A model generated the notes under the pieces. The model had not been told where the DNA came from, searched no databases, and was given only the letters and a program-made list of their open reading frames with translations. Shown here piece by piece: positions 9,043-45,925 of a stretch of 64,000 bases of DNA (positions are counted from its first letter, which is position 1; each line of letters starts with the position of its first letter). Location of the stretch: positions 26,005 to 90,004 of the forward strand of contig CALWAL010000007.1 in the NCBI GenBank assembly GCA_944373145.1. Direction: 5' to 3'. Made by a program: the position numbers and the translations under genes. Source of the stretch: an uncultured Bacilli bacterium (GTDB lineage: Bacteria > Bacillota_I > Bacilli_A > RF39 > UBA660).

Positions 9043-9074
9043 AATAAAAGAATGTTATAATAAACTTGTTTTGA

Positions 9075-9290
9075 AAAAGCGAAGATGAAAGAGTAGTAAC
9101 AAATTAACTGATTAATAGAGAGTTCATGGTTGGTGGAAAATGAATATGAGGTATTTGTGAATTCACTTTCTAGCATTATAAAAGAAAATTTATAACGGTG
9201 ACGCGTTATAGTCTTAAGGCTAGTTTTGCTAGTGAATTAAGGTGGTACCACGTCAATCACGTCCTTATTAGGATGTGATTTTTTTTATAA
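9075..9290 (+). promoter_or_regulatory. Phe-specific T-box riboswitch leader
   Basis: AGAGAG and GGTTGGTGGAAA stem-I motifs. Specifier GAA-TTC-AC (UUC = Phe) at 9162-9164. T-box AATTAAGGTGGTACCACG at 9235-9252. Terminator AATCACGTCCT-tatt-AGGATGTGATT-T7 lies directly upstream of pheS. Confidence 0.93.
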
Positions 9291-23037: not shown

Positions 23038-25671
23038 ATGAAATTTGTATACTTATTCAAAGAAGGTAATGCAGATATGAGAAACCTTCTAGGTGGTAAG
23101 GGTGCTAATTTAGCGGAAATGACTAATTTAGGATTACCAATTCCACAAGGTTTTACTGTTACGACAGAAGCTTGTACTGATTACTATAAAAATGATAAAA
23201 CAATTTCTAGTGAAATTGAAGAACAAATTTATACTGCTCTTCATGAATTAGAAAAAATGCAAGGCAAGACCTTTGGAGATGTTAATGATCCACTATTAGT
23301 ATCTGTAAGAAGCGGTGCACGTGCATCAATGCCAGGAATGATGGATACAATCTTAAATTTAGGTTTAAATGATGAAGCAGTAGAAGGATTTGCAGCAAAA
23401 ACTGGTAACCCACGTTTTGCATATGATTCTTATCGCCGTTTTATTCAAATGTATTCTGATGTAGTTATGGAAGTAAATAAATCATTCTTCGAAAAAATTA
23501 TTGATGAGTTAAAAGAAGAAAAAGGCATTAAGTATGATACTGAAATGACTGTTGAAGATTTACAAGAATTAGTAAAAAGATTTAAAAAGGTTTATAGTGA
23601 CCATATGAATGGTGCAGAGTTCCCACAAGATCCAAAAGAGCAATTAATGGGAGCTGTTAAAGCTGTATTTAGATCTTGGGATAATCCACGTGCTATTGTA
23701 TATCGCCGTATGAACGATATTCCAGGTGACTGGGGAACAGCTGTAAATGTTCAAGCAATGGTATTTGGTAATATGGGAGATACATCTGGTACAGGTGTAG
23801 CATTTACAAGAAATCCATCTACCGGTGAAAAAGGTATTTATGGAGAATATTTAATTAATGCTCAAGGCGAAGATGTTGTTGCTGGTGTTAGAACTCCTCA
23901 ACCAATTACTAAATTAGCTGAAGATATGCCTGAAGTTTATGAAGAATTTATGGCTATTGCTCATAAACTAGAAAACCATTATCGTGATATGCAAGATATG
24001 GAATTTACTATTCAAGAAGGAAAATTGTATTTCTTACAAACTCGTAATGGTAAAAGAACCGCACATGCAGCTATTCAAATTGCTTGCGATTTAGTTGATG
24101 AAGGTATGATTACGAAAGAAGAAGCAATTTTAAGAATTGAGGCTAAATCATTAGATCAATTATTGCATCCAACTTTTGATACTGAAAGTTTAAAAAATGG
24201 CGAAGTTATTGGTTCTGCTTTACCAGCATCTCCAGGTGCTGCTGCTGGTTATGTAGTATTTACTGCTGAAGAAGCTAAAGTTTTAGGTAAAGGCGGAAAA
24301 GGTGACCGTGTTATTTTAGTTCGTTTAGAAACTACACCAGAAGATATTGAAGGTATGGTTGCCGCTCAAGGTATTTTAACAGTTCGTGGAGGTATGACAT
24401 CACATGCTGCAGTTGTTGCTCGTGGTATGGGTACTTGTTGTGTATCAGGTTGTGGTGAAATTGTTATTAATGAAGAAGCTAAAGAATTTACTTTAGGCGG
24501 ATATACTTTCCATGAAGGTGATTATATTTCATTAGATGGATCTACAGGTAAGATTTATAAAGGAGATATTGAAACTAAAGAGGCAAGTGTTAGTGGCAAT
24601 TTTGGACGCATTATGGCATGGGCAGATGAAGTTAGAACTTTAAAAGTTCGTACAAATGCCGATAATCCACGTGACACTAAGAAAGCTTTAGAATTAGGGG
24701 CTGAGGGCATTGGTTTATGTCGTACAGAGCACATGTTCTTCGATGAAGTTAGAATTCCAAAAATCAGAAAAATGATTTTATCCGAAACTGTTGAAGCACG
24801 TGAAGCTGCTTTAAATGAATTAATTCCATTCCAAAAAGGCGATTTCAAAGAAATGTACAAGGCTTTAAATGGTCTACCAATGACTGTACGTTATTTAGAT
24901 CCACCACTACATGAATTTTTACCAACAGCTGAAGCCGATATTATTGCTCTTGCTAATGAAATGGGTGTTACGGTTGAACATTTAAAGAATAAATGTAATG
25001 ATTTACATGAATTTAACCCAATGATGGGACACAGAGGTTGCCGTTTAGCTGTAACTTATCCTGAGATTGCTAAAATGCAAACTAGAGCTTTAATGGAAGC
25101 TGCAATTGAAGTAAGTGAAGAAGAAAATATAACTATAGTTCCTGAAATTATGATTCCTTTAGTTGGCGAGGTTAAAGAATTAAAATTTGTAAAAAACATT
25201 GTAGTTGAAACTGCTGAATTAGTTAAGAAAGAGAAAAATTCAAATATTGAATACCATATTGGTACAATGATTGAAATTCCAAGGGCTGCTTTAACTGCCG
25301 ATAAGATTGCTGAAGAGGCTGAGTTCTTCTCATTTGGTACAAATGACTTAACACAAATGACATTTGGATTCTCAAGAGATGATGCTGGTAAGTTCTTAGA
25401 TGCATATTATCAAAATAAAATTTATGAATCAGATCCATTTGCTAAATTAGATCAAACAGGTGTTGGTCAATTAGTTAAAATGGCTGTTGAAAAGGGACGT
25501 GCAACTAGACCAAATATTAAATTAGGTATTTGTGGTGAACATGGAGGAGAACCAAGTAGTGTTGAATTCTGCCACAATCTAGGATTAACTTATGTTTCTT
25601 GTAGTCCATTTAGAGTACCAATTGCACGTTTAGCTGCTGCACAAGCTGTAATCAAAAATGGGAGGAACTAG
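23038..25671 (+). CDS. ppdK: Pyruvate, phosphate dikinase, with the C-terminal VIKNGRN supplied by the integrated element
   Basis: GGKGANLAEM, LVSVRSGA, GGMTSHAAVVARG (phospho-His), GIGLCRTEHMF and GICGEHGG. Confidence 0.97.
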   Translation: MKFVYLFKEGNADMRNLLGGKGANLAEMTNLGLPIPQGFTVTTEACTDYYKNDKTISSEIEEQIYTALHELEKMQGKTFGDVNDPLLVSVRSGARASMPGMMDTILNLGLNDEAVEGFAAKTGNPRFAYDSYRRFIQMYSDVVMEVNKSFFEKIIDELKEEKGIKYDTEMTVEDLQELVKRFKKVYSDHMNGAEFPQDPKEQLMGAVKAVFRSWDNPRAIVYRRMNDIPGDWGTAVNVQAMVFGNMGDTSGTGVAFTRNPSTGEKGIYGEYLINAQGEDVVAGVRTPQPITKLAEDMPEVYEEFMAIAHKLENHYRDMQDMEFTIQEGKLYFLQTRNGKRTAHAAIQIACDLVDEGMITKEEAILRIEAKSLDQLLHPTFDTESLKNGEVIGSALPASPGAAAGYVVFTAEEAKVLGKGGKGDRVILVRLETTPEDIEGMVAAQGILTVRGGMTSHAAVVARGMGTCCVSGCGEIVINEEAKEFTLGGYTFHEGDYISLDGSTGKIYKGDIETKEASVSGNFGRIMAWADEVRTLKVRTNADNPRDTKKALELGAEGIGLCRTEHMFFDEVRIPKIRKMILSETVEAREAALNELIPFQKGDFKEMYKALNGLPMTVRYLDPPLHEFLPTAEADIIALANEMGVTVEHLKNKCNDLHEFNPMMGHRGCRLAVTYPEIAKMQTRALMEAAIEVSEEENITIVPEIMIPLVGEVKELKFVKNIVVETAELVKKEKNSNIEYHIGTMIEIPRAALTADKIAEEAEFFSFGTNDLTQMTFGFSRDDAGKFLDAYYQNKIYESDPFAKLDQTGVGQLVKMAVEKGRATRPNIKLGICGEHGGEPSSVEFCHNLGLTYVSCSPFRVPIARLAAAQAVIKNGRN
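25641..25648 (+). other. attL core (ACAAGCTG) inside the ppdK 3' end
   Basis: Identical 8-mer at 39182-39189, extending to ACAAGCTGnnATCAAA at both sites. Confidence 0.8.
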
Positions 25672-25831: not shown

Positions 25832-26305
25832 GTGAAATTGATGTATTCTAGGCCAATATTAAGGGATTTATCGCAGGGCGCACGTATAGCTTTTGTAAGG
25901 CAGTTTAGGGCGAAGACACAGGATGAAATAGCTGGTTTGTTAGGTGCAACTGGCGAATGCAGAAGAAGGACTATGACAAGATATGAAAAGGGGGATAGAA
26001 ATCCTACCACAGCAAGAGCCAAGCTTATTGCTGAATTATTAAATGTTAATTATCATGCCATTAAGCAATATGATTACAAAGAACCATTGGATTTTATCTA
26101 TACTTTGTTATGGATGGAGGAGTTACTGCCTAATTATCATTTTGATGTAGATGATGTATTTATTACTGATGTGGATTTCCTTAATACTATTAATGCCTTT
26201 CTGAAAGAATGGGAGATTATGAAGAGAAAGAGAAAGAATAGGGAGATTAAGTATTCAACTTACATTGAGTGGAAGCTATCATATTCTTTCGAGGACAGAA
26301 AATGA
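25832..26305 (+). CDS. XRE-family HTH transcriptional regulator
   Basis: IAFVRQFRAKTQDEIAGLLG...MTRYEKGDRNP. ATGA overlap with the parB-like gene. Confidence 0.8.
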   Translation: MKLMYSRPILRDLSQGARIAFVRQFRAKTQDEIAGLLGATGECRRRTMTRYEKGDRNPTTARAKLIAELLNVNYHAIKQYDYKEPLDFIYTLLWMEELLPNYHFDVDDVFITDVDFLNTINAFLKEWEIMKRKRKNREIKYSTYIEWKLSYSFEDRK

Positions 26306-27141
26306 ATGGTACTAAAGTTATTAAGATAGTGGATATAGAACCGTTTAAGGATCATCCATTTATAGTTGAAGTTGATGACTCGTTGAAAGAATTGGCACAG
26401 AGTATTATGGAGAATGGTTTATTAAATCCTATTATTGTAAGAGAGAAAGGTAGTAAGTATGAGATGGTTTCTGGTCATAGAAGATTAAAAGCATTAGAGA
26501 TGAATGGTGCTGATGAAGTAGACGCATTTGTTAAAGCTTTATCCGATGATGAAGCTACTATATTTATGGTTGACTCTAATCTTCAAAGAGAGAAGATACT
26601 TCCTAGTGAAAGGGCATTTGCATATAAGATGAAGATGGATGCTTTAAAGCACCAAGGCAAAGCTTTGTCTCCTAAGGGAACAAAATCACATTCGGTCGAT
26701 GAGATAGCAGATACAAAGACTCAGGTCTTTCGTTATATAAGACTTACTTACTTGATTCCGGAACTGTTAAAGATTGTTGATGATACTGCTAGGACTAACG
26801 ATAAGCACAATATAACAATGGGTATTAGACCTGCTGTAGAATTGTCTTACTTGAGTAAGGATGAGCAAAAGTTGGTGTATTCAGAGATGATTTATGATGA
26901 TTTAAGTCCTTCACATGCACAAGCAATCCGAATAAGGAAGTTGAGTGAGAAGAAGAAACTAGATGCAGACAAGCTAGAGAAGATATTATTGGAGAAGAAG
27001 GGAAACCAACATGAGCAGATATCTTTTAATAAGGAGAATATAGAGAGTGTTTTGCCTTATGATCTGCTTAAGAGAGATAAGCGTTATATTGAAGAATATA
27101 TTATTGAAGCTATTAAGGCATATAAGAAGGGTAATAGATAG
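26302..27141 (+). CDS. ParB/RepB/Spo0J-family protein
   Basis: PFKDHPF, LAQSIMENGLLNPIIVR, YEMVSGHRR (ParB box) and NLQRE.ILPSERAFAY. Confidence 0.9.
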   Translation: MNGTKVIKIVDIEPFKDHPFIVEVDDSLKELAQSIMENGLLNPIIVREKGSKYEMVSGHRRLKALEMNGADEVDAFVKALSDDEATIFMVDSNLQREKILPSERAFAYKMKMDALKHQGKALSPKGTKSHSVDEIADTKTQVFRYIRLTYLIPELLKIVDDTARTNDKHNITMGIRPAVELSYLSKDEQKLVYSEMIYDDLSPSHAQAIRIRKLSEKKKLDADKLEKILLEKKGNQHEQISFNKENIESVLPYDLLKRDKRYIEEYIIEAIKAYKKGNR

Positions 27142-27149
27142 ACAATGTA

Positions 27150-27177
27150 AAAGGAAAGAGAGCTTTCTCTTTCCTTT
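27150..27177. terminator. Bidirectional terminator between parB and the convergent MTase gene
   Basis: AAAGGAAAGAGA-gctt-TCTCTTTCCTTT. Confidence 0.8.
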
Positions 27178-29407
27178 AGTTTTCTTCATCTTCTTCAACT
27201 GTTTCCATATCGTTAAATAGTTTCTTTGTATTTGTGTGATACCTATATTGGTATACTTCTAGTTCTCTTTTAAGAGCTAATTCAAGTTCTGTATATTTCG
27301 CTTCCATTAGTGTTAGCAATAGACAAATATCTGCTTGAGCACCTAGTGGAATAACCGGAATTGTTAATTGTCTAAAGTCTTCAAGTGTAATATAGTTAGT
27401 AGGTGAAGAAGTGTTGTTATAGTATCTTTTGATATGTTTATTGATTTTTTCTACAAAGTAGTCTGATTCTAATACATATCTTAGATATGCGGGTGATACT
27501 TCGTCTTCTATATTTTTAAATGGTCTTAATCGAAATACACTATCCGAGAATATAAAGTTAGGTTTTTGTACTATAGCTGCCTTAGTACCTTTTGAGTAAA
27601 TAGCGAATAATACATCATCCTTTTTCAACTTTCCTTTACTAATGAACTCATCTAAGTCTTCTTTTCTTATTCTTTCTGTATGAATAGTTTTGTTTTCTTT
27701 GATATACATTAGCGAACTGTCTTCCATAACAGCACCATTTTGTATTTCCTTTGTTGTAATATAACGATATGGGAAATTATCGTTGGTATCTATTTTCATG
27801 TCTTTTATTTTAGAACCAATAGTTATATCGGCAACATTAACTAGTGGAATCATTTTAATTTGATTGCTTTGTTTTAGTTGTTCTAAAGTATTGACTATAC
27901 ATTTGTTAACCCTTTTAATTTGTGTATTATACTTTAAACGTGATTTGTAATTAGCTTCTTCTTCATTCTCGTAAATGAAATCAGATAAGCATACATCTTC
28001 AATAGTTGTAAATGTGTGTTCTTTTTTATAATTAATGTAGTCACAAATATTTAATGAATATTTGTGATTTGCTATTTCTTCTGGAGTTGCTAAGTACGAT
28101 AGGTTGTCTATGCTCTTTCTACCTAATATAAGTTCTATGATGTTATCTATATTTTCATCACTAAAAGTTACTTGATTACTATTCTTAGTGCATATGTTAC
28201 CTGCATCAACAAATAATATATTGTTGTCTGTTTTGTTTTTTCGAATCAGAAACAGACATGTACCGGTATCAGTTCTTAGGAACATCTTTCTAGGTAGTAG
28301 TATTATTGTATCTATTTGATTGCTATCAACTAAATGTTTTTTTACTGCGGTTTCTTCAGGATTTGTTCTGGATAACATGTTTGGTGTGTCAATTGCCAAT
28401 GCTAATCCATTTTTATTTAGTGTGTATATGATGTGGTATATGAATGCCCAATCAGCTAACTCTTTATTAGGAAGAGGTTTGTCATTGAATCTCTCGTCGT
28501 CTTCTCGCAAAGCTGATTTATTCCAAGGTATTCCAAATGGTGGGTTAGCAAATATCAAATCGTACTTTTCTTTTTCTTCTTTATCATAAGTTAGCAATGT
28601 ATCACATTGAGAAATTTTAAAGTCCCTTACATTATGTATTATCATATTCATTCTACACAACATAGCAGGTATTGCATTTAATTCTTTGCCATAGAAAGGT
28701 ATAGTATTGTTAAATCTTGCATATTCGGTTAATAATGAACCACTTCCACAAGTAGGATCGTAGATGTTATTAGGATCAGTGATATATTGGTCTGAAATCT
28801 TTTTTAATAGTTTTACTATTGATGGTTGAGTATAGAATATGCCATTTTTAAGACTCATGGTATTGTTTGTATCTTTATTGTTTAGTAAGAATTCAAAGAT
28901 ATTACCAAATAAGTCATAATCAGATTTGTTAATGTCATAGTCAACATCTGATATAGCTTTTAATATGGTTGAATATATATTACTCCTTATATTTTGACTA
29001 GTTCCAATACCTTCTGCTTCAGTATCTATGTTTCTAAAGATTTCACATATCTCATATTTAGAAGACTGCTTGATATTCTTGAATATTGAGTTTAATGTTG
29101 AATCTAAACGACTACTATTCAATTCTTTTGCTACAATATTTTGGAATAAGTCTTCTGGGTATATGAAGAAATCTATATCACTTTGTACTTGAGATTTATA
29201 TGCTTCTGCCTCATTGTTATTTAGTTCAATATAATTTACATTGAAGCTAGTTTGAATATGCTTGATTATGCTTTCGGAAAGAAAGCGGTAGAATAAGATT
29301 AAGTATATGTATTTTTCATAACTAGTTATATCCTGACCTTTGTTATATCCTGTCAAAGCTTTTTTTAAGTTTTTTGTGATTGTTCCAACACTTTTCATTC
29401 TTCCCAT
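27176..29407 (-). CDS. Type I-like N6-adenine DNA methyltransferase (HsdM) fused to a single HsdS-like target recognition domain
   Basis: HsdM N-domain, FYTQP, DPTCGSGSLL (motif I) and ANPPFG (motif IV). The C-terminus has a TRD pattern (RYITTKEI, LKKDDVLF, YLRYVLES, FRQLTIPVIPLGAQ) plus a long helix. Confidence 0.85.
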   Translation of the reverse strand: MGRMKSVGTITKNLKKALTGYNKGQDITSYEKYIYLILFYRFLSESIIKHIQTSFNVNYIELNNNEAEAYKSQVQSDIDFFIYPEDLFQNIVAKELNSSRLDSTLNSIFKNIKQSSKYEICEIFRNIDTEAEGIGTSQNIRSNIYSTILKAISDVDYDINKSDYDLFGNIFEFLLNNKDTNNTMSLKNGIFYTQPSIVKLLKKISDQYITDPNNIYDPTCGSGSLLTEYARFNNTIPFYGKELNAIPAMLCRMNMIIHNVRDFKISQCDTLLTYDKEEKEKYDLIFANPPFGIPWNKSALREDDERFNDKPLPNKELADWAFIYHIIYTLNKNGLALAIDTPNMLSRTNPEETAVKKHLVDSNQIDTIILLPRKMFLRTDTGTCLFLIRKNKTDNNILFVDAGNICTKNSNQVTFSDENIDNIIELILGRKSIDNLSYLATPEEIANHKYSLNICDYINYKKEHTFTTIEDVCLSDFIYENEEEANYKSRLKYNTQIKRVNKCIVNTLEQLKQSNQIKMIPLVNVADITIGSKIKDMKIDTNDNFPYRYITTKEIQNGAVMEDSSLMYIKENKTIHTERIRKEDLDEFISKGKLKKDDVLFAIYSKGTKAAIVQKPNFIFSDSVFRLRPFKNIEDEVSPAYLRYVLESDYFVEKINKHIKRYYNNTSSPTNYITLEDFRQLTIPVIPLGAQADICLLLTLMEAKYTELELALKRELEVYQYRYHTNTKKLFNDMETVEEDEEN

Positions 29408-29539
29408 TATAACACCTCCATTTAATCAGTAAATATTATACCACTTTTTAACCGATTTTAGAATGTAACTACAATAATCAATGTTATTAGTTTAAATATC
29501 CCAATCTATATATCTGTCTTTTTGATTAGTCAAAATATA

Positions 29540-29558
29540 TCCCAAGTAACACTAGGGA
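29540..29558. promoter_or_regulatory. Operator-like palindrome, copy 1
   Basis: TCCCAAGTaacACTAGGGA, 17/19 identical to 36924-36942. Confidence 0.6.
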
Positions 29559-29662
29559 AGTTTTTGAAGTGAATTATGATGGTTGAATGTGCTCAGAAAT
29601 GTTTTAGTTTTTATAATAATTAATACCACTTTTTGTATATTTTAGAGTAAATTGGTTACTAA

Positions 29663-29844
29663 ATTTCGTACAATACTATGACAATTGTTAGATTACCTTT
29701 CGAGTTTATTATGGTGTTTTTTACTTTTTTGATAGTTTAGTGAAAAATGTCTTTTAGATTTCGTATAGTAATGTGACAGTTGATGGATTGTCTGGTTAGT
29801 TCTTCACCTTCACAACTTTTAAGATAATCCATCAATAATTGTCA
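29663..29844. repeat. Imperfect 32-bp direct repeat plus long inverted repeat
   Basis: 29663-29694 and 29758-29789 match at 25/32. TGACAGTTGATGGATTGTC (29774-29792) is inverted, with a small insertion, at 29823-29844. Confidence 0.55.
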
Positions 29845-30290
29845 GTTTAATTTTATATTACTATGATGGTTGATGAATCATCGGATTTACAGCGACGTTT
29901 TTACAACTTAGTGCGAGATTGCCAACTCGTTAAACGCAATAACAATACTAAAGATACTAATACTAATAATCAAAACATTAATTTTAATAAGAATATTAAC
30001 AAGAGAAAGATAAAAGATAATATTCAGTGATCTAGACGGTATTTTGTAATTTAGAGAATGGGGATATTTAAACATTAAGAACACAGGAACCCCAATTATA
30101 TTTATAGTATCGACGTACAATTTCACTAGAAGATGTATATGCAGATATAAGATGATTATTTTATTTGATTAAGCTGGTCAAGCGGAGATTTTGAAGTGAC
30201 TATGGTTATTTATACTAGTTTTGCTTTAAAGTCTCTCAAACCGGTTTAAAGTTGCTAAATATTTTGAATTTAGAGAGGATTTGAGAATGT

Positions 30291-30680
30291 ATGAAAGCAC
30301 ATTGGATTGTTAAACTTAAGAATCCATTTAATGGAATGAAGCTGGTTGCTTATGAAGATGGACGTGTCTATGTTGGTGGAACTGGACCTTTAATTGGTAA
30401 GCTTAAATCAACTTCTATGAAGAAAATTAGATATTACATCAACGAGTATGCCCATTATATCAAGATAGTTGGATATGAAGTTCAGGATATATATGGATTT
30501 ATAGCCAAGTTCTGGGATAATAGCAATGTTAAGCGTGATGACCTGACGGTTAAAGGTTGGCCTTACGAGCGTGAATTCCTAGAGATTATATTTAACAAGA
30601 ATTCATATCGTAAGTTTTTGATTGGTGATGGTGAGTTTGTTTCTATTATGCATGATTATTTATTAACTTCGTTAGATTAA
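30291..30680 (+). CDS. Hypothetical protein
   Basis: 129-aa ORF with a GAGG RBS upstream. Confidence 0.65.
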   Translation: MKAHWIVKLKNPFNGMKLVAYEDGRVYVGGTGPLIGKLKSTSMKKIRYYINEYAHYIKIVGYEVQDIYGFIAKFWDNSNVKRDDLTVKGWPYEREFLEIIFNKNSYRKFLIGDGEFVSIMHDYLLTSLD

Positions 30681-30695
30681 GCATGCAGAGGAATG

Positions 30696-30900
30696 AAACT
30701 GGTTTTGTTTTTATCAGCAACTGCTGCAGGTAAAACTGGTTCTGGGGATCGTTGCATGAAGCGTTGCTTGATTCGGTGGATCCGGCGTAGCTTGTAGGAG
30801 AGCAAGTTACCGGTTTTACCTAATCCTATTTGTAAGAACATTACCTAGTGGTATTTATACTTTTATATGGATTTTTAGTGCAACGAAGTGTGGGTTGCCT
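30696..30900. other. GC-enriched structured non-coding segment of unknown function
   Basis: 13-bp stem AGGTAAAACTGGT/ACCGGTTTTACCT (30728-30821) encloses sub-hairpins. A GCAAC...GTTGC hairpin lies near 30880-30898. Confidence 0.45.
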
Positions 30901-31012
30901 TTTCTGCTGTCTTCACAATGTGCTGGAGTAAGTAATAATATTTATATTCTGTTCTATTTCCTATTGATTAAGTTTTACTTTTAAGGTTAAATACAAAATC
31001 AAAGGTGAATAG

Positions 31013-31360
31013 ATGATGAAAGATACAAAGATAGATAGATATATTGATAAATCACTTCTTCCAAAACATCACTATATAACACTAGAACTAGTTAGAAGGA
31101 AGTTTATCAGCAGTGAATCGGATTTTGATTTATACCTGTATGATGCTCTATTTGAAGAATTATTGTTGAGATATGACTTTAAGACAGTTATAGTTGCAAC
31201 AAATTACGTTGCTACGAGAGTTAAACAGCAGCAATTTTGCTCGGAAGATGGAGCCAAGATCGAGAACTTATATGCCTATTTTAGGTCTTCTATTACATTT
31301 AACCTAAGAAAGATTACTAATCAGATAGATTTTGATTGGTTGAATGATGATTATGATTGA
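31013..31360 (+). CDS. Hypothetical protein, possibly resembling a replication-initiator C-terminal domain
   Basis: 115-aa ORF with AAGGTGA RBS and an IENLYAYFRSSI motif. Confidence 0.6.
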   Translation: MMKDTKIDRYIDKSLLPKHHYITLELVRRKFISSESDFDLYLYDALFEELLLRYDFKTVIVATNYVATRVKQQQFCSEDGAKIENLYAYFRSSITFNLRKITNQIDFDWLNDDYD

Positions 31361-31593
31361 TTTCCTTATAGTTTTTCTACCTTTTTTAGGGTTTTTGCAG
31401 CTTTTTTATATATTTTAGTAGAACATCCTATTGTAGAAATGTCCTGCTATTATGAGAAAAATATTACGATTTTGAAACGTCTTGATTTTTGCTTCTTTTC
31501 TCTGTTAGTGGGTATTTCTATTACTTTGTTCGAAAGATTCTTCAAATGGGCAGAGAATGCCGAATCAGGTGGTTATTTGAGAGGAGTTGTACT

Positions 31594-32025
31594 ATGAGAA
31601 CTTGGCTGGTTAAGCTTGAAAGATACGATAAGAACTGGATTACCTTGTATGATGATGCAAATGTATTAACCTATGGAAGAAAGAAACCTTATGTTTTGAA
31701 GAAATCAGCGATGGAAATGGTACAAGAATTGATTAGTGAGTATTCTGCTGATGATTCAACTGCTGATTTTGATCAAGATTGCATTATCAAATGTAATATC
31801 AATCCGAAACTAGTGAGCCATAATCGTTTGTTTTTTAATCAGATGGTGGCAATATTATTTGATTTTAGAAATATTAAGCATCCAGATAGTCGTCTAGGTC
31901 CTATATTAGAGGAAATAGAACGTTTAAGAGCAGATGGAACACTACAAGAGATGATAGACACAGATGGTCAAGATGCTGTTATAGAACAATTAATTATGAA
32001 TTTTAGTGATAGAGATAGCGATTAA
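31594..32025 (+). CDS. Hypothetical protein
   Basis: GAGGAG RBS precedes ATG 31594. A terminator follows. Confidence 0.65.
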   Translation: MRTWLVKLERYDKNWITLYDDANVLTYGRKKPYVLKKSAMEMVQELISEYSADDSTADFDQDCIIKCNINPKLVSHNRLFFNQMVAILFDFRNIKHPDSRLGPILEEIERLRADGTLQEMIDTDGQDAVIEQLIMNFSDRDSD

Positions 32026-32122
32026 TGAGTGATTGCTCTCTTTTTATTTGGTTTTAGAGATGAATTATATGTTTATTTTATCAACTTTTTATGGTACAAC
32101 ATGGTTAGTATGGAGGTAAAAT

Positions 32123-32443
32123 ATGTTTAGACCTAAGACTGATGATGACATTACTGAAGAAGAATTTGTAACGATATTATCACCTTTCGTTGATAAATGT
32201 CATGAATACATAGAGAAGAAACTTATTCCAGTATATGTTGCTTACTATATAGCAGAAGCATACAATACAAGTTCTTTAGAAGAGGATACTTATGATATTT
32301 TCATAAACTCTGCCTTATGTTCATTTAATATTGAACCTGCTAATTATGAAACTATCAAATCTGATACTACAAAGCTGCTAGAGGATGAATATCACTTAAG
32401 AGTAATAAGCGAAGATCCACTAGATTTTGAAAGAATATTCTGA
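32123..32443 (+). CDS. Hypothetical acidic protein
   Basis: GGAGGT RBS, 106 aa. Confidence 0.65.
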   Translation: MFRPKTDDDITEEEFVTILSPFVDKCHEYIEKKLIPVYVAYYIAEAYNTSSLEEDTYDIFINSALCSFNIEPANYETIKSDTTKLLEDEYHLRVISEDPLDFERIF

Positions 32444-32567
32444 TCCTATGTTATTTGACAATAGATGCTTTAGTTGGAATTATAGTTTAAGAATTATTGT
32501 TTATTTCATTTAAATAGCTGTATAATTATTTAAAGCACGTTATTATACAAAGCGGATGGTGATGTAA

Positions 32568-32795
32568 TTGAATAAGCTTATTCTTGAGTTTCCTACATTC
32601 GAAGAGATAAAAGAAGTTTTATCTAAGGAACTACCTGATATCATTGAGATAACATTTAAGAGTCAAGAAAACAATGCTAAAGAGTTTGAAATAATATATT
32701 ATTTGGTTAATTGTACTGATTACTTTTTTGAATCGTTAACGCCAACTGATGATTCACGTACAAACTTTATAGCACACTTTAAAAGGAAGAGTTAA
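32568..32795 (+). CDS. Hypothetical protein
   Basis: 75-aa ORF with TTG start and GGTGA RBS. Its stop lies in a bidirectional terminator (32781-32808). Confidence 0.55.
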   Translation: MNKLILEFPTFEEIKEVLSKELPDIIEITFKSQENNAKEFEIIYYLVNCTDYFFESLTPTDDSRTNFIAHFKRKS

Positions 32796-32824
32796 TTCTC
32801 TTCCTTTTCTATGATTAATAGACT

Positions 32825-33097
32825 TTAATCGATTTTTTTTGTTACGTTACTAGATTCTGGTTCTTCAAATAATTTTGATAACGGTATTCCAAGAACTTTA
32901 GCAAACTTATATGTAGTACCGATACTTGCTGTTTGAAATACTTTTTCAGATTCAAGATTTTTTATGAAACTCAAAGCATACAAACTTTTTTCAGCGAGTT
33001 GTTCTTGTGTCATACCTGCCTCTTTTCTATACTTTTTTAGATTTTTAGCTAATATTGTGTAAGCATAGTTTTCATCAATTTGGTTTTTATTATTCAT
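32825..33097 (-). CDS. XRE-family HTH regulator, divergent from the zinc-ribbon genes
   Basis: LAKNLKKYRKEAGMTQEQLAEKS...FIKNLES...AKVLGIPLSKLF. Confidence 0.88.
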   Translation of the reverse strand: MNNKNQIDENYAYTILAKNLKKYRKEAGMTQEQLAEKSLYALSFIKNLESEKVFQTASIGTTYKFAKVLGIPLSKLFEEPESSNVTKKID

Positions 33098-33277
33098 TTG
33101 TCCCACCCATAACAATTATCTCAATAATAAGTTAAATATTTAGTATGTTGTTCGTAGACTTTTGTGGTATAATAATTATATAGTAAGTTGTTTTCATGGA
33201 AGTAGTTTAATGATTTTGTTTACCGAAATATTTGAAGATAGTAGCTTTTATGAAGAAAGTTAGTGATGGTGATTGAT

Positions 33278-33814
33278 ATGGCATTAATTAAATGTGTTGA
33301 GTGCGGAAAAGAGATTAGTGATACAACCGATATATGCGTTCATTGTGGTGCACCTACTTCTATTTCAACTAAGCGTAACGATAATGTTGTTACTAAATCT
33401 AAGAGGAACAATAAACGTAACATCGTCATTTTTATTGTTGTATGTTTATTAGTTTTTTGTATTGTAATTATTGTTGTACCTTTTTTTATAAACCTTAGAA
33501 ATAAGGATATATTAGCTTCTGATACCTTAGATGCTGAATATTCAGCACCTGAGCTAGAATATATTTATGGGGATGCGATGAGAGTTATATTTGAATTTAA
33601 AGATGATGGAACAGCAATTTATCAACGTTGCAATGCTAAAACTGATGCTTGTGCAGATCCTCATTCATATACTTATAAGAAATACGGATTAGATGTAGAT
33701 ATTTATGGCAGTGGTAATAACCTTTTATATGATTGTTCTTTAAAAGACTCTGGCAAGTTTCTAAATTGCTACGATATGAGTGGTCAATATCAAGATTATG
33801 CAAAGACTAATTAA
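33278..33814 (+). CDS. Zinc-ribbon header protein 1 (single TM plus extracellular domain)
   Basis: MALIKCVECGKEISDTTDICVHCGAP, followed by a TM helix IVIFIVVCLLVFCIVIIVVPFFI. Confidence 0.8.
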   Translation: MALIKCVECGKEISDTTDICVHCGAPTSISTKRNDNVVTKSKRNNKRNIVIFIVVCLLVFCIVIIVVPFFINLRNKDILASDTLDAEYSAPELEYIYGDAMRVIFEFKDDGTAIYQRCNAKTDACADPHSYTYKKYGLDVDIYGSGNNLLYDCSLKDSGKFLNCYDMSGQYQDYAKTN

Positions 33815-33841
33815 TTTAAGAGTAAGAAAGGAAGGAAAATT

Positions 33842-34192
33842 ATGGCACTAATTAAATGTAAAGAATGTGGAAAAGAGATTAGTGATACTGCTAATGAATG
33901 TGTTCATTGTGGATGTCCTTTAGGTAAAGTGAAGTTCTATACTTCTAATAATTGGACAGGTATAGCGAGTAGATATATTATCTCTAATAATAATGGACAA
34001 GTTCTTGCTAAACTAAAAGGTGGCGAAGAATTTGAAATAAATATTGATGAAGATACCAAATTTTATGTTCGATGCAATACTACTCTTAGCAGAAAAAAAC
34101 ATGAAGTTGTAGCATATGCATGTAAGATTAATAAGTTTCTAGTCGAAATAACTTTTATGGGAGCAAGTACTCGTGTATCAGAGATTAATTAA
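33842..34192 (+). CDS. Zinc-ribbon header protein 2 (soluble beta-rich tail)
   Basis: MALIKCKECGKEISDTANECVHCGCP. No TM. Confidence 0.8.
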   Translation: MALIKCKECGKEISDTANECVHCGCPLGKVKFYTSNNWTGIASRYIISNNNGQVLAKLKGGEEFEINIDEDTKFYVRCNTTLSRKKHEVVAYACKINKFLVEITFMGASTRVSEIN

Positions 34193-34212
34193 TATTTTAA
34201 AGGAGGAAAATT

Positions 34213-34665
34213 ATGGCATTAATTAAATGTAAGAGTTGTGGTAAAGAAATTAGCGATAAGTCTACTAAATGTGTTCATTGTGGTTGTGATACTGATTATT
34301 CAATTACATATTTTTGTTCTGAGTGTGGTAAAGAGTTTGATAACATTAAATGTATGAATTGTGGTTATTCTCCTAATAATAAGAAAGATACTACTAATCA
34401 ATCAGCGAATGTTGGTTTTAATTTTAAACCATTATTAATAAGTTTAGCAGTAGGAATTATTACTTTTATTATCATGTCCTATGTTGAAGGGATTTTTATT
34501 GTGGACATATCTGTGTCAATAATACTATTTTTAACTTGTTTGGGAGCTCTAACTGGTTCTTTGGATGATTTTGTTGATACAATGGACGATTTTCATGCAA
34601 GTACAGATAAAGATCCTTATAAAAGAGCTTTGTACAAGGAAATTAAGAAGAATAACAAGAAGTAA
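34213..34665 (+). CDS. Zinc-ribbon header protein 3 (double zinc ribbon plus two TMs)
   Basis: MALIKCKSCGKEISDKSTKCVHCGCD, second ribbon CSECG...CMNCG, then two hydrophobic segments. Confidence 0.8.
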   Translation: MALIKCKSCGKEISDKSTKCVHCGCDTDYSITYFCSECGKEFDNIKCMNCGYSPNNKKDTTNQSANVGFNFKPLLISLAVGIITFIIMSYVEGIFIVDISVSIILFLTCLGALTGSLDDFVDTMDDFHASTDKDPYKRALYKEIKKNNKK

Positions 34666-34721
34666 TTGCTATAAAAGACTATTTACTATGGTACAATATA
34701 CTTAACTGAGGAGGTTCAATT

Positions 34722-35420
34722 ATGACTAAAAAAATTGGAATTAAGAAAATTGAAACTAGTATTCCTTGTGATGTTTTTGTTTCGAGTATAGATGGAATCG
34801 TTGGTGCATCAAAAGGTGTTAATCTAGATGTTTACTTCACTTCTAAGAAAATTTATGAATTAGAAGATACCATGTTTGTTGTACTTGACATGTATGATGG
34901 TACCGGTGAAATGAAAGCTTTATTAGTGGGTAATAGAGATAAAGAATTTACTTCACTAGTTGATGGTATTAAGATTGATGCCGATGTAAGATATAGAATA
35001 AGTGGTAATGTTTCTATACCTTCTGACACTGATGATGTGGAGTTACCTTTTATGAATGATATTAAGAATAATAAGTTGTTTTGTATTTATGCTTTTCAAA
35101 GAAATCCTAAATCAACGTATTGTGAACTAAAACATCTTGCTAGGACAGAGATTGAGAAAGTTCGTGATGGTATAAGTACTGTTCAACAAAGTATTATTGA
35201 TAGTCTTAAGTATGATAAAAGTATTTCTATGGAAGAACTTCATATCATGTATTGTTTTGATGGTGATGGTGGTTTTGATCTAGACATACATCAATTTTAT
35301 GATTTATATGTAAGCCCATTGATAAAGAGTAAAGAAATTAAGGTGTGCAATTTAAAACAATGTTCTAAAGAGAAACCTTTACCAATGCCAGAATTTGAGC
35401 TTATGTATAATTGTAATTAA
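34722..35420 (+). CDS. Hypothetical protein with possible OB-fold
   Basis: GAGGAGG RBS. VLDMYDGTGEMKALL...YRISGNV resembles OB-fold nucleic-acid-binding domains. Confidence 0.6.
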   Translation: MTKKIGIKKIETSIPCDVFVSSIDGIVGASKGVNLDVYFTSKKIYELEDTMFVVLDMYDGTGEMKALLVGNRDKEFTSLVDGIKIDADVRYRISGNVSIPSDTDDVELPFMNDIKNNKLFCIYAFQRNPKSTYCELKHLARTEIEKVRDGISTVQQSIIDSLKYDKSISMEELHIMYCFDGDGGFDLDIHQFYDLYVSPLIKSKEIKVCNLKQCSKEKPLPMPEFELMYNCN

Positions 35421-35486
35421 TAGACAGAGATTAATTCTCTGTTTTTTCTAAAGACGCTGTAATTTTGTTTAATGTATGTTTTAATG

Positions 35487-35678
35487 TAGAAGATGCTACA
35501 TATGCTGTAGTACCTGAAGACAACATCAAGAGGTAGCTCCTCTTGTGAAGATACATGATGTGGTTTGATTCCGGTTAAATCATGGAAGGGTTATAAGTGA
35601 ACGATTGTCCCTAGTGCAGTAAACAAGCGCCGCCATTTAGAACTTTAGCAAGATAGACTTTGTAGTCTGTCTTTTTAT
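35487..35678 (+). ncRNA. Candidate ~190-nt structured non-coding RNA, family unrecognised
   Basis: Possible extended -10 (TGtTTTAAT) upstream, four successive hairpins and an intrinsic terminator AAGATAGACT-ttgt-AGTCTGTCTT-TTT. No ORF. Confidence 0.4.
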
Positions 35679-35831
35679 TTGGCCTAATATGGGTGTAAAC
35701 GAAATCATTTGATTTCTTTTATATTAGAAACTTGTCCAAAATGCGTTGCTTTTTATCTGAATTTAAGTGATTTATATAAACGAAATGTGAAAGATGTTTT
35801 CTTTTACACTTTAGAAAAGAGGTAATTTAAT

Positions 35832-36434
35832 ATGGAAAGCAAAGTATGGGGTTACTGCCGCTGTTCCACCAACGATTCAAAACAAGATGTCAAGTATCAG
35901 ATTGATGCATTAATTGATAAAGGTGTAGATATATCTAATATAAGGTATGAGTATATTTCTGGTAGGAAGGAACATAGACCTGGACTTGATGCACTGTTAG
36001 AAGAAATGAATGAGGGTGATACTTTAATAGTTACTGATATTACTCGTTTGTGTAGGAATACAAAGGTTTTGTGTGAAATAATTGATTTGATTATTGCAAA
36101 GAAATTTAGGCTTATTGTTGGAAGTATTGATATAGATTGTAGGAATGGTAGTTTAGATCCTATGATTGAAGGTATGCTAAAAATTAACGCGGTTTTTGGG
36201 GAGATGGAAGCAAAACTGAAAATACATCAAATCCATTTAGGATTAGCTACAGCTGTTAAGGCTGGTAAGAAGTTAGGACGTCCTAAGTCAACTTATGATG
36301 ATATTCCAAAGGTGTTTATGCAGTATTATCCTAAGTATAAGAATGGAACTCTAAACAAAATGGCTTTTGCTAGAGTTACTCAATTATCGTATCCAACTAT
36401 TTATAAGTACCTAGATATTGTTGAGAATGCTTAG
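35832..36434 (+). CDS. Small serine recombinase (resolvase/invertase family)
   Basis: GYCRCST catalytic motif, EYISG...RPGL, GDTLIVTDITRLCR, GKKLGRP and C-terminal HTH. Confidence 0.93.
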   Translation: MESKVWGYCRCSTNDSKQDVKYQIDALIDKGVDISNIRYEYISGRKEHRPGLDALLEEMNEGDTLIVTDITRLCRNTKVLCEIIDLIIAKKFRLIVGSIDIDCRNGSLDPMIEGMLKINAVFGEMEAKLKIHQIHLGLATAVKAGKKLGRPKSTYDDIPKVFMQYYPKYKNGTLNKMAFARVTQLSYPTIYKYLDIVENA

Positions 36435-36569
36435 TAGTAGTTATTATTAAGAGAACTTTTTGCTAAAGTTTTCTTTTTTTTTGATTAATCTGAGTTTTAT
36501 TCAAAATATTTCGTATAACAGTATAGTTGCTTTTTCCATAATGGGCAACTAGAAAGTAAGGTGATTTGT

Positions 36570-36893
36570 ATGAATTATGGTTATTATGTAAAAGGAAGAA
36601 GTGAGATGGAAAATTGGGATACTTATTATGATGTGTATTGTTATGTCCCAGATGACGAGAAAATCTTTTGCGACGAAATAGGCAGTAGTAAAAATTTGGA
36701 TTATCTTCTTGATATTATGGGAGAAGGTGATAGCCTTCATCTCACTAATCTCTTTGATTTAGGAAGAAGTTGGGATAAGGTTATTAAGGCTTTGTACATT
36801 CTTAATGATAATAATATTAGATTGTTTGTTATGAACGATGAGGTTAATCTTGATGATGTAATATATGTAATTACAGGTGCCGAAGTAGCTTAA
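36570..36893 (+). CDS. Degenerate resolvase-like protein lacking the catalytic YxRxS motif and the HTH
   Basis: IFCDE...LDYLLDIMGEGDSLHLTNLFDLGRS...IRLFV matches the resolvase core. The N-terminus reads MNYGYYVKGRS. AAGGTGA RBS precedes ATG 36570. Confidence 0.65.
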   Translation: MNYGYYVKGRSEMENWDTYYDVYCYVPDDEKIFCDEIGSSKNLDYLLDIMGEGDSLHLTNLFDLGRSWDKVIKALYILNDNNIRLFVMNDEVNLDDVIYVITGAEVA

Positions 36894-36923
36894 TAAGCTA
36901 CTTTTTTAATGTTTGATTTTTAT

Positions 36924-36942
36924 TCCCAAGTAGGACTAGGGA
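36924..36942. promoter_or_regulatory. Operator-like palindrome, copy 2
   Basis: TCCCAAGTaggACTAGGGA, upstream of the microprotein-integrase genes. Confidence 0.6.
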
Positions 36943-37145
36943 GAATTTTCACACTATTGTCTGGTAAGGATGTACGTATGTCTTTTAGTGAGAATATTTA
37001 TGTATTAATGCTTGATAATTCGCTGTTTTTATAAGGTTTTTAGCACTTTTTTCAACTTTTTGCATTTAAAATTGCGAAACGCCTGACACAAATCGTAACA
37101 ACTAACAAGCTCGTTTGAGAGTTTTGGAAAGTGTGGTGGATTATT

Positions 37146-37307
37146 GTGTCTAATAGGATTGATTTCAAACTTAGTGATTCAAATAAGAAAATACTTAATA
37201 TGAATCTTGCTGTTGAGATTATTAGAAACTTATTATTTGTAAATGAAGTTATAACTTCAGAAGAGTTTCAAAATGTTATTAAGTGTGCTAATCGTAGTGT
37301 CAAATGA
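37146..37307 (+). CDS. 53-aa SHOCT-like microprotein upstream of the integrase (absent from the ORF track)
   Basis: GTG start behind GGTGGA. Sequence is MSNRIDFKLSDSNKKILNMNLAVEIIRNLLFVNEVITSEEFQNVIKCANRSVK*. Confidence 0.55.
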   Translation: MSNRIDFKLSDSNKKILNMNLAVEIIRNLLFVNEVITSEEFQNVIKCANRSVK

Positions 37308-37351: not shown

Positions 37352-39079
37352 ATGGATTCAATATGTTTTTATGCTCGTGTTTCCACGAAGCATGAATCTC
37401 AATTATATTCTTTTGAGAACCAAGTTCAATTATATGATATGTTTTTAGTAGAGCATTCTCATGAGAATTGGGAAGTATATGATAGATATTTTGACAAAGG
37501 TATAACAGGTACTTCGATGAAAAAGCGTAAGGGTTTTTTAAGGATGATAGATGATGCTAAACGTGGTTGCTTTAATACTATTATAACCCGTGAGGCTTCT
37601 CGTTTTGCAAGAAATGTTCAAGATACTCTTAATGTTTCAATTGATCTTGTTGAGAGAGGTATTAGACTTATTTTTATTGAAGATAAGCTAGATACAAAAC
37701 AAGATGAAGATTGGAAAAGTAGATTAACACAACTTGCTATTGATGCTGAAAAGCATTCAAAAACACAATCAGTCAACGCTAAAGCAGGTCAAAAAATATC
37801 TAGAGCGAAACATGTATTATATGGTAATGGGAATGTATTAGGTTATGATAGAGTAGGAAAGGAATATGTCATTAATGCTGAGCAAGCTAAGGTTGTTAGA
37901 TTGATTTTTGATATGTGTTTACGTGGAAGCGGAAGTAGAGATATTCAATACGAACTAGAGAAGAAAAACTATCTTACATCAACCGGTTTAGAGAACTGGA
38001 ACGTTGCAACCATCACAAGAATACTTCGTAACTCGATATATTGTGGTACTGTTGTTTACAATAAAAGTTATAGTAGTGATTATTTACATCAAAAGCGTAT
38101 TCTTAATAAAGGAGAAGTAGAGCAACTCGTTGTAGAAGATAGAGTTCCGGCAATTGTTTCTAAAGAAGATTTTGCTAGAGCACAGGAGATACTTGATAGC
38201 CATAAAACTAATAATAAAGGTGTAGTGACTACGGTTGGGAAACCACCGACTACTATCTTTGGGAAGAAACTCAAATGTAGTTGTGGATATAGTATGCAGA
38301 AAAAGAAATATCATACATATAAGGATGGACATACTGCCTATTGTTATCAATGCTATGACCAAGTAAATAGAGGCTCTTTTACCTCTAGAAAGAAACACGG
38401 TGTAAGTGTTGAAGGTGTTTGTGATACAAAAATAATTCCAGATTGGAAATTGAAATTAGCATCCTATACTATATTTGATATGTTAATTGATAGAAGAGAG
38501 GATATTATCGATATTATAGATAAACTACTAGAATCAGCGGTTGATGATGATAAAAATCTTCTATGTAGTGAGCAGGAGTTTTATGAAAAAGAAATAGAAG
38601 CCTTGAAGAGAAGGATATCTAAGTTAATGGATTTATATACTAATGAATATATAACTCTGAATGAGTTTAACGAAAAGAAGAAAGAAATAGATACCACAAT
38701 GAATGAATATAATGCTAAACTAAACAAACTTATAACTAATAAGTGTATAACTCCAAAAACAATTAGTGAACGTTTAGCTGAATGTAAAGATATAATTACT
38801 AATAGTTTTATGAATTATAAAGATGGAACTACATATGAGTTGTTAGTAGATTCTTTTGTTGATAGAATTATTGTAAGTAATGATAAGCTTGAATGGCATA
38901 TGAGATTAACAAAAGAAATTAAAATGCCGCTTGATGATGTTATAAGAGAGAAAGAAGTGTTTATAGGTACATTATCACTTACTAAAGATGACGCTACATA
39001 TTATTCTAAGTATTGCAATGATTTATCTAGAGTATGCTTTGATAAAGCATTGCTGGTTGATATATATCTTATGTTCTGA
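37352..39079 (+). CDS. Large serine recombinase (integrase)
   Basis: FYARVST...Q, YFDKGITGT, REASRFAR, LGYDR, recombinase domain (ILRNSIYCG), zinc ribbon (KCSCG...YCYQC) and coiled coil. Confidence 0.95.
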   Translation: MDSICFYARVSTKHESQLYSFENQVQLYDMFLVEHSHENWEVYDRYFDKGITGTSMKKRKGFLRMIDDAKRGCFNTIITREASRFARNVQDTLNVSIDLVERGIRLIFIEDKLDTKQDEDWKSRLTQLAIDAEKHSKTQSVNAKAGQKISRAKHVLYGNGNVLGYDRVGKEYVINAEQAKVVRLIFDMCLRGSGSRDIQYELEKKNYLTSTGLENWNVATITRILRNSIYCGTVVYNKSYSSDYLHQKRILNKGEVEQLVVEDRVPAIVSKEDFARAQEILDSHKTNNKGVVTTVGKPPTTIFGKKLKCSCGYSMQKKKYHTYKDGHTAYCYQCYDQVNRGSFTSRKKHGVSVEGVCDTKIIPDWKLKLASYTIFDMLIDRREDIIDIIDKLLESAVDDDKNLLCSEQEFYEKEIEALKRRISKLMDLYTNEYITLNEFNEKKKEIDTTMNEYNAKLNKLITNKCITPKTISERLAECKDIITNSFMNYKDGTTYELLVDSFVDRIIVSNDKLEWHMRLTKEIKMPLDDVIREKEVFIGTLSLTKDDATYYSKYCNDLSRVCFDKALLVDIYLMF

Positions 39080-45760: not shown

Positions 45761-45845
45761 TGGTGCGAGTGAAGGGACTTGAACCCCCATGCCTTGCGGC
45801 GCTAGATCCTAAGTCTAGTGCGTCTGCCAATTTCGCCACACTCGC
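45761..45845 (-). tRNA. tRNA-Leu(TAG)
   Basis: Reverse complement GCGAGTG...CTAGA-CTTAGGA-TCTAG...GGTTCAAGTCC...CACTCGC-ACCA, with a long variable arm. Confidence 0.95.
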
Positions 45846-45848
45846 AAG

Positions 45849-45925
45849 TGGTGGATCTTGTAGGACTCGAACCTACGACCGCCCGGTTATGAGCCGGATG
45901 CTCTAACCAACTGAGCTAAAGATCC
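45849..45925 (-). tRNA. tRNA with CAT anticodon, Ile2 (lysidine) type
   Basis: GGATCTTTAGCTCAGTTGGTTAGAGC...CTCATAA...GGTTCGAGTCC...GATCCACCA matches the Bacillus Ile2 pattern rather than elongator or initiator Met. Confidence 0.9.

Follow-up and report, generated by a model that had tools for sequence, protein, structure and literature searches.

The window analysed here is a stretch of 64,000 nucleotides from an uncultured Bacilli bacterium (assembly GCA_944373145.1, contig CALWAL010000007.1) and contains an element of about 13.5 kb that is flanked by ppdK (23038-25671) on one side and an ABM/alkA/ogt/tag gene cluster on the other. The element begins with genes for the helix-turn-helix (HTH) protein XRE1, a ParB-family protein and a methyltransferase (MTase), continues with a rightward early operon, a second XRE gene and a small serine resolvase gene, and ends with genes for a microprotein and a large serine recombinase (LSR). 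A 19-bp palindrome occurs twice within it, once upstream of the MTase gene and once upstream of the microprotein and LSR genes (Table 1).

The original prediction for this DNA, made by a model from the letters and a list of their open reading frames (ORFs), described two 19-bp copies that differ only in a 3-bp spacer (AAC in copy 1, AGG in copy 2), and this description is correct. The dyad is imperfect, with A in the left arm and T in the right at arm position 5; the two copies agree in this asymmetry and in their orientation. With an 8-3-8 geometry, 7 of the 8 arm positions symmetric and the half-site centres 11 bp apart, or about one helical turn, the palindrome has the layout of a dyad operator for a dimeric HTH protein. 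The distances given at the outset, about 130 bp to the MTase start and about 200 bp to the microprotein and LSR genes, also agree with our measurements, since copy 1 is 132 nt from the MTase ATG at 29407 and copy 2 is 188 nt from the GTG at 37131 and 203 nt from the GTG at 37146. Judged from homologues, the latter GTG is the likelier start of the microprotein.

Table 1. Features of the element around the two palindrome copies (coordinates of the window).
Feature	Position	Strand	Remarks
XRE1	25832-26305	+	HTH_3/HTH_19 protein
ParB-family CTPase-type protein	26269-27141	+	ParB_N and TIGR00180 matches; GHRR motif; HTH; aligns with Spo0J and Noc
HsdM-like MTase fused to a single target recognition domain (TRD), M-S fusion	27176-29407	-	
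Intergenic region holding copy 1			880 bp; between MTase gene and rightward operon
MTase extended -10	29434-29443	-	TGGTATAAT; conserved in all lineages
Palindrome copy 1	29540-29558	+	TCCCAAGTAACACTAGGGA = TCCCAAGT-AAC-ACTAGGGA; direct match in window
Promoter-like box 1a	29663-29674	+	ATTTCGTACAAT
Promoter-like box 1b	29758-29769	+	ATTTCGTATAGT; GTGAAA 18 nt upstream; GTGAAAAATGTC...box arrangement also in G444
Rightward early operon	29863-32795	+	3' of copy 1; small ORF, then ORFs of 129, 115, 178, 106 and 75 aa
XRE2	32825-33115	-	HTH_3/HTH_19 protein
Three zinc-ribbon paralogues	33263-34665	+	
232-aa ORF	34722-35420	+	
Small serine resolvase	35832-36434	+	
Third canonical box	36508-36519	+	ATTTCGTATAAC; 52 nt before the resolvase-like ORF
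Degenerate resolvase-like ORF, 110 aa	36561-36893	+	Resolvase catalytic-domain remnant without catalytic serine motif
Intrinsic terminator	36882-36904	+	Directly before copy 2; in homologues the stem sequence changes and pairing is kept
Palindrome copy 2	36924-36942	+	TCCCAAGTAGGACTAGGGA = TCCCAAGT-AGG-ACTAGGGA; direct match in window
Degenerate box 2	37090-37101	+	AAATCGTAACAA; about 45-55 nt before microprotein start
Microprotein	37146-37307	+	First gene of unit 3' of copy 2
LSR	37352-39079	+	Second gene of unit 3' of copy 2

A search of the window at up to two mismatches recovered just these two places, as compared with 0.01 expected, and this count was reached in none of 100 shuffles. A genome-wide count had been proposed as a check, and in the window's own assembly (1.29 Mb in 15 contigs, 28% G+C) the same threshold yielded two copies only, both of them in the element, while the next-best matches had 3-4 mismatches and were at chance level. 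Isolated half-sites were at or below chance genome-wide, with 16 occurrences of TCCCAAGT and 8 of TCCCTAGT (17 expected for each). The half-site that had been singled out at 35608-35615 is indeed present, but it carries no signal; it sits within an RNA-like element that is conserved in its own right, and two related loci, L177 and L180, read CACCAAGT at the orthologous bases. Four half-sites (TCCCAAGT or TCCCTAGT) also fall within 900 bp at 7435-8309, inside the coding genes for RNase HII and a DHH-like protein, apparently by chance. When the two intergenic regions were compared with each other, no further similarity was found besides the palindrome and short promoter-related words, and an Rfam search at and near both sites gave no match.

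Related genomes and loci are referred to here by our G and L labels. In related serine-integrase elements, with LSR identities down to 50%, the palindrome forms an island of identity within otherwise unalignable intergenic DNA and is present in 2-3 copies per element, in one orientation throughout. Orthologues of copy 1 were found at the equivalent place in G358, L246, L141 and G444 and in degenerate form (AACCAAGTAGGGCCAAGAA) in G230, and orthologues of copy 2 in G358, L176, L177, L183, L184, L185 and G444. The site is perfect in all three copies of G444, in L176 (LSR 64% identical) and in L185 despite an LSR identity of 50%. One mismatch was seen in L141/L144 and in L177 (LSR 66%), in the latter at the asymmetric position, and two in L246, while L183 and L184 have degenerate copies, arranged in tandem in L183. 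Within the family, sampled by 401 genomes and searched at 1 mismatch, the pair of sites occurs only in G358, which belongs to another genus, besides the window's genome. The G358 element is syntenic with that of the window (72% identity for XRE1, 79% for ParB, 80% for the MTase, 59% for the LSR and 36% for the resolvase), XRE2 being missing or unrecognisable, and has the palindrome island at both places as well as a third, degenerate copy after copy 2.

Across 13 aligned sites, positions C3, C4, A6, G7, T8, A9, A15, G17 and A19 are invariant. The commonest-base fraction, taken over 11 anchored sites, is 0.91 for the arms versus 0.56 for the flanks, with T-tracts on both sides and conservation ending at the arm ends. 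The palindrome shows the footprint in orthologous non-coding DNA, and the scarcity elsewhere, that are expected of an operator. Neither of the outcomes named beforehand as fatal to the original prediction, a motif common elsewhere or one not conserved in homologous elements, was found, and the comparison supports the view that the two palindromes are one shared, selected and element-specific cis-element.

Matches outside these elements were set aside. Single matches in G256, G012 and G017 are attributed to chance, those of G256 and G012 falling inside ORFs; the palindrome TAGCAAGTAATACTTGCGA in G360 lies inside an SSB gene; and a scan of viral contigs gave 31 single matches, none with homologous genes, which are likewise taken as chance. 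A wider scan of genome contigs with a W-degenerate pattern returned only an unrelated perfect hairpin repeat from other phyla, cgTTCCCAAGT-N3-ACTTGGGAAcg (L003-L111), which is found, often in several copies on one contig, in Verrucomicrobiota, Desulfobacterota, Campylobacterota and others, and looks like a repeat of the repetitive extragenic palindrome (REP) or miniature inverted-repeat transposable element (MITE) type unrelated to the element. Distant ppdK-XRE1-ParB elements were searched for repeated palindromes of other sequence, and none were found.

The alignment of 13 sites also bears on whether the palindrome acts as a hairpin in RNA or single-stranded DNA, for example as a weak terminator, processing site or origin. 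A 7-bp stem is possible (-6.7 kcal/mol) and is followed by a T-run 2-3 nt later, but compensatory covariation is lacking: of 104 cells just 1 is compensated, positions 5 and 15 never pair, and the changes break pairs. The real terminator next to copy 2 behaves in the opposite way, its sequence diverging while the pairing stays, and copy 1 has no upstream gene to terminate on either strand. We consider a hairpin function highly improbable.

Downstream of each palindrome copy, and on its strand, lies a box of the form A(A/T)TTCGTAYA(A/G), with the consensus ATTTCGTAYAA. The genome contains six occurrences of this box, three of them in the element, where all three are on the + strand, to which is added the degenerate copy before the microprotein. 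In homologues the box (TTTCGTATAAC before the microprotein) lies 52-55 nt 5' of the microprotein ORF or the resolvase-like ORF, and from this spacing it appears to behave like the -10 region of a promoter with a weak -35. Readings of the box as a sigma-54 or extracytoplasmic function (ECF) type promoter were rejected because the spacings are inconsistent with them.

To describe the spacing, distances were counted from the centre of the palindrome to the box. For site 1 the distance is 116 bp in the window, 116 bp in G358 and 114 bp in G230, and it is thus nearly constant (about 114-117 bp) in three diverged lineages although the intervening DNA is unalignable. For the recombinase-proximal site we obtained 115 bp in L184, 128 bp in G358, 137 bp in L176, 147 bp in L177 and 159 bp in both the window and L185. 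The nine distances show a periodicity of about 10.7 bp (R = 0.88), a value equalled by 0.055% of random distance sets when periods of 10-11.2 bp are considered. By hand count, G444 adds distances of 138 and 158 bp, which are in phase, and extra upstream copies in G358 and L183 are 185-187 bp from the box and off phase. This spacing indicates that palindrome and box form a two-part unit. The modular unit consists of a T-tract, TCCCNAGTA-NN-ACYAGGGA, a second T-tract, about 11-15 helical turns of free sequence and then the box; one unit heads the rightward early operon beside the MTase gene, and one or two more head the recombinase operons.

The original prediction had wired copy 1 to the MTase promoter, and this part has to be revised. 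The MTase gene has its own extended -10, whose distance to site 1 varies in other lineages, whereas the rightward box is at a near-constant distance, and for this reason copy 1 seems to belong with the rightward early operon and not with the MTase promoter. The palindrome neither overlaps nor abuts a core promoter, being located 114-187 bp upstream of the box, with the MTase -10 some 110 bp away.

Since the copies are directly repeated and a resolvase gene lies between them, with its end just before copy 2, we also considered a recombination site (res, hix or att-like) of the small serine resolvase or the LSR, with the direct repeats bounding an excisable segment. However, the central bases differ among the copies of one element (AAC/AGG; AAT/AGG/AAG; AAC/AGG/AAG), including those of G358 and G444, and differing spacers are incompatible with the 2-bp crossover of serine recombinases. 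The palindrome is moreover of odd length and, at 19 bp, far below the known 25-50-bp sites, and it does not have a 24-bp layout with 12-bp half-sites and a 2-bp core. The site is kept in G358 with a resolvase of only 36% identity; G250 encodes a resolvase 86.5% identical to that of the window, yet has no MTase, palindrome or LSR; and both the LSR (28% identity) and the microprotein of G444 are unrelated to those of the window. A role in recombination as such is hardly credible on these grounds, and the small resolvase and the integrase are poor fits as proteins that read the site.

The original prediction named either of the two XRE proteins or ParB as the protein that binds the palindrome. 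G444 (95% complete) contains the same element body, with an MTase of 98% and a small resolvase of 99% identity and three perfect palindromes, while its genome has no XRE1 and only two distant ParB_N proteins with identities of 31-34%. A left end without ParB was also found in at least five metagenome contigs (the L141/L252-255 type). Because G444 keeps three perfect sites without either gene, XRE1 and ParB are very unlikely readers of the palindrome. The ppdK-XRE1-ParB arrangement is the common left end of many different elements, including an integrative and conjugative element (ICE; L250), and nine such loci have no motif. Of the proposed shared operator coupling methylation to excision, the shared, element-specific site stands, while the suggested binders are not supported.

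For ParB, the specific proposal would be a KorB-like loading or operator site for the CTPase, possibly locked at promoters by XRE1. KorB works from OB sites remote from promoters (PMC11790492). The ParB encoded in the window's element has an N-terminal CTPase-type domain, a GHRR motif and an HTH, features that apply to the window only, and its recognition helix (TKTQ...) is shared by G358, G230 and L246 but not by L249, the site of which is changed as well. Nevertheless, both G444 and the L141/L252-255 type have sites without XRE1 or ParB, L250 shares the helix but has no site within 20 kb, ParB homologues are present in 50 of the 401 genomes as compared with 3 for the motif, and the imperfect 8-3-8 geometry is unlike that of parS or OB. 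Taken together, this makes a KorB-like function very improbable.

An operator of XRE1 or XRE2 as a classical mobile-element repressor fits in that dimeric XRE proteins bind palindromes of such size. The distribution of the two proteins argues otherwise: XRE1 is absent from G444, and its recognition helix RRTMTRYEKG is unchanged between motif-bearing and motif-less lineages; in G444, as in G358, XRE2 is missing or unrecognisable, yet it is 74-100% identical in the motif-less L249, G350, G223 and G250, the identity being 100% in G350. No copy of the site was found in the upstream regions of XRE1 and XRE2 themselves. XRE2 is hence a poor fit as a reader, and an XRE operator can be given very little credence.

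Other genes of the element are similarly uncoupled from the site. The complete element L272 has the ORFs of 129, 178 and 115 aa, XRE2 and the 232-aa ORF at 74-94% identity and XRE1 and ParB at 75-77%, but no canonical palindrome, and in G350 both XRE2 and the 75-aa ORF are 100% identical while the motif is absent. Co-occurrence of the kind expected between an operator and its cognate DNA-binding protein was thus seen for none of XRE1, XRE2, ParB, the small resolvase and the LSR.

The MTase is the sole protein whose presence tracks the palindrome. Among the 401 family genomes, the MTase family is present only in the window's genome, G358 (80%) and G230 (46%), which are exactly the genomes that bear the motif, in degenerate form in G230. 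Site conservation also appears to follow MTase identity: there are 0 mismatches in G444 (MTase 98%), one in L141 (93%), one in G358 (80%) and two in L246 (76%), whereas the distant paralogues (35-46%) go with a degenerate site, as in G230 (45-46%), or with no canonical site, as in L249/L272 (35%). The latter have TCCCTAATTGAAGAGGGGA in a single copy with none near the LSR; a second copy was sought in the complete element L272 and not found. A fusion of HsdM to a single TRD, corresponding to a half-S type I enzyme, is expected to dimerise and to read a symmetric site. A distance of 8 bp separates A6 of the top strand from the A that lies opposite T14, presumably as in M.AhdI-type targets.

We tentatively favour the reading that the palindrome is a distal regulatory site coupled to the element's HsdM-single-TRD MTase, either through the enzyme's target or as a methylation-sensitive operator, and put its probability at roughly 0.4. 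The coupling to the MTase is inferred because the other candidate proteins were eliminated. The original prediction had mentioned the MTase's own bipartite target as a fallback, and the one-to-one co-occurrence of MTase and motif supports such a link without proving it.

Several observations weigh against a coupling to the MTase. Site 1 adjoins the MTase gene, so that the co-occurrence is partly plain linkage; the recombinase-proximal copies are 7-11 kb from the MTase, across variable cargo. The G444 element is 98-99% identical to that of the window and its perfect sites therefore tell little about selection, and, besides the 401 family genomes, the comparison of site with MTase covers G444, L141, L246 and L249/L272. 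About 17 positions are constrained, which is above any known type I-like specificity, and whereas a type I-like half-S target would have short half-sites, a non-specific spacer of about 5-8 bp and many copies per genome, here the constrained positions are contiguous and there are 2 copies. The left arm CCAAGTA is invariant and thereby tighter than the right arm (ACCAAGGA in some copies), which a strictly symmetric dimer would not yield. Finally, the distance from palindrome to box at site 1 of L246 is 124 bp and out of phase; with L246 and G444 included, a hand calculation gave R of about 0.79 and p of about 0.001 at a period of 10.6 bp. The number of constrained positions and the asymmetry of the arms imply that the MTase target would be at most a sub-motif of the palindrome, and a methylation-sensitive partner or a second reader besides the MTase may be involved.

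Such features could also be accounted for by a regulator unrelated to methylation, for which the palindrome would serve as a distal operator or upstream activating site, bound by a dimer that loops to the promoter; candidates would be a host factor or a small protein, so far unrecognised, that is encoded in the module on the MTase side or on the recombinase side. The half-site centres 11 bp apart and the roughly 17 conserved bp are in line with this, the phasing of the box suggests looping, and several proteins encoded in the element have no assigned function. On the other hand, all annotated DNA-binding proteins lack the required co-occurrence, and the uncharacterised middle genes are 74-100% identical in L272 and G350, both of which are without a canonical site. 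Chromosomal sites, which one would expect for a host factor, were not found at up to 2 mismatches. We regard such a regulator as possible, if somewhat doubtful.

If the palindrome is coupled to the MTase, the likeliest mechanism would be that the enzyme acts as a symmetric dimer and that the palindrome contains its putative symmetric target. How active the early and integrase promoters are would then depend on occupancy by the MTase, or on a methylation state that a partner senses at the promoter, and the methylation status of the DNA, newly arrived or replicated versus established, would thereby be linked to recombinase expression. A more far-reaching version, which we consider speculative and on balance unlikely, is that self-methylation serves as an establishment switch. 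The orphan MTase would recognise the phased palindrome, unmethylated or hemimethylated new DNA would express the recombinase and the early genes, and fully methylated resident DNA would be silent, the unit being portable and having been moved before unrelated serine integrases, of which one targets ppdK and one a spoVD-like gene.

A few further observations concern the make-up of the element. The element body has been swapped between integration modules, as seen from a comparison of window positions 27176-36434 with G444 (L266, G444:C12:26000-45999). In G444 the element adjoins a penicillin-binding protein (PBP)/spoVD-like gene truncated after SxxK, has an LSR just 28% identical to that of the window and is without XRE1-ParB. 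It also encodes a 126-aa counterpart of the 110-aa resolvase remnant and an 84-aa C-terminal resolvase fragment, which are served by their own palindrome-plus-box unit (L266 4427-5063). The 115-aa ORF of the window (31013-31360) has a homologue in the C-terminal part of a 274-aa protein encoded directly after ParB in G151 (L218, G151:C14, reverse strand 2174-2998), the N-terminus of which resembles, by eye only, a plasmid-type replication initiator. In L250 the same ppdK-XRE1-ParB left end is followed by conjugation-type genes (sortase, SpaA adhesin, SSB, TraG-like). From such gene contents, the element may have descended from a plasmid- or ICE-like backbone.

Other conserved segments were noted in the non-coding parts. 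A strongly conserved block at 29830-29935 comprises TTGTCA-17-TATGAT and the first 19-26 codons of the small ORF (MMVDESSDLQRRFYNL...), which ends in a low-complexity tail that is variable among lineages; the block is kept even in L249, in which other DNA has taken the place of that to its left. At 35450-35685, 5' of the small resolvase gene on the + strand, a conserved non-coding element of about 230 nt with its own terminator (35650-35673) is 88% identical in L177 and 80% in L180, while the adjacent proteins are only about 34% identical. An Rfam search of this element gave no match, and RNAalifold on three sequences predicted several hairpins with 4 compensated pairs. A small hairpin (CTC-N4-GAG) at 37100-37130, between the promoter box and the microprotein start, has a stem that varies with compensation across lineages (GCTC/GAGC, CCC/GGG, CTCAA/TTGAG) and may be a structure of the 5' untranslated region or a second operator. 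The only Rfam matches at the gathering level in the window were a T-box leader and two tRNA genes (9073-9269; 45764-45925).

The regulation of elements with large serine recombinases in uncultured gut Bacilli is, to our knowledge, essentially unknown, and we know of no previous description of a control site in mobile elements that accompanies an orphan type I-like MTase and is placed in front of serine integrases. The analysis defines a portable two-part control unit, a palindrome with a phased promoter box, that heads early genes and integrase alike; it removes the obvious regulator candidates, turns attention to the element's own MTase and raises the question of whether integrase expression is gated by DNA methylation in such elements. 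Should the link to the MTase fail, the palindrome would still be a handle for fishing out the regulator.

The palindrome does not fit the classes of parS or OB sites, serine-recombinase sites, terminators and classical promoter-overlapping operators. It resembles the C-boxes of restriction-modification C proteins, of the GACT-N3-AGTC type, in being an HTH-type palindrome with a 3-bp spacer beside an MTase gene, but a restriction gene is absent, no C gene goes together with the site, its sequence is unrelated to that of the C-boxes, and additional copies precede recombinase genes. In plasmid RK2, a few copies of a palindrome across a mobile element act remotely on several promoters through KorB/OB with KorA or TrbA (PMC11790492, PMC13584720). 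The window's element is similar in having few dispersed copies far from promoters and in encoding a ParB-CTPase with an adjacent HTH gene, but in G444 the site persists without ParB and XRE1, its phasing to the promoter is not needed by a sliding clamp, and the imperfect 8-3-8 dyad contrasts with the perfect 13-bp OB. The spacing further resembles that of looping operators with helical-phase dependence.

Operators of this kind are araO2-araI, gal OE-OI and lac O1-O3. Like these, the palindrome is a distal dyad site located an integral number of turns (about 11-15) from a promoter-proximal element, but no second palindrome was seen at the promoter, and it is the box, another motif, that takes the place of the proximal partner. 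Methylation-sensitive promoter control in mobile DNA, or MTase autoregulation at its own promoter, occurs in IS10/Tn10 with Dam, in the pap and agn43 switches and in M.SsoII-type MTases. As in those systems, an MTase and a promoter-near site would decide the expression of transposition or recombination genes, and the MTase gene adjoins one of the sites here. In contrast to them, the system described here would combine a type I-like HsdM-single-TRD fusion with a site of about 17 bp that is placed 114-159 bp from the box, in register, and repeated before a serine integrase.

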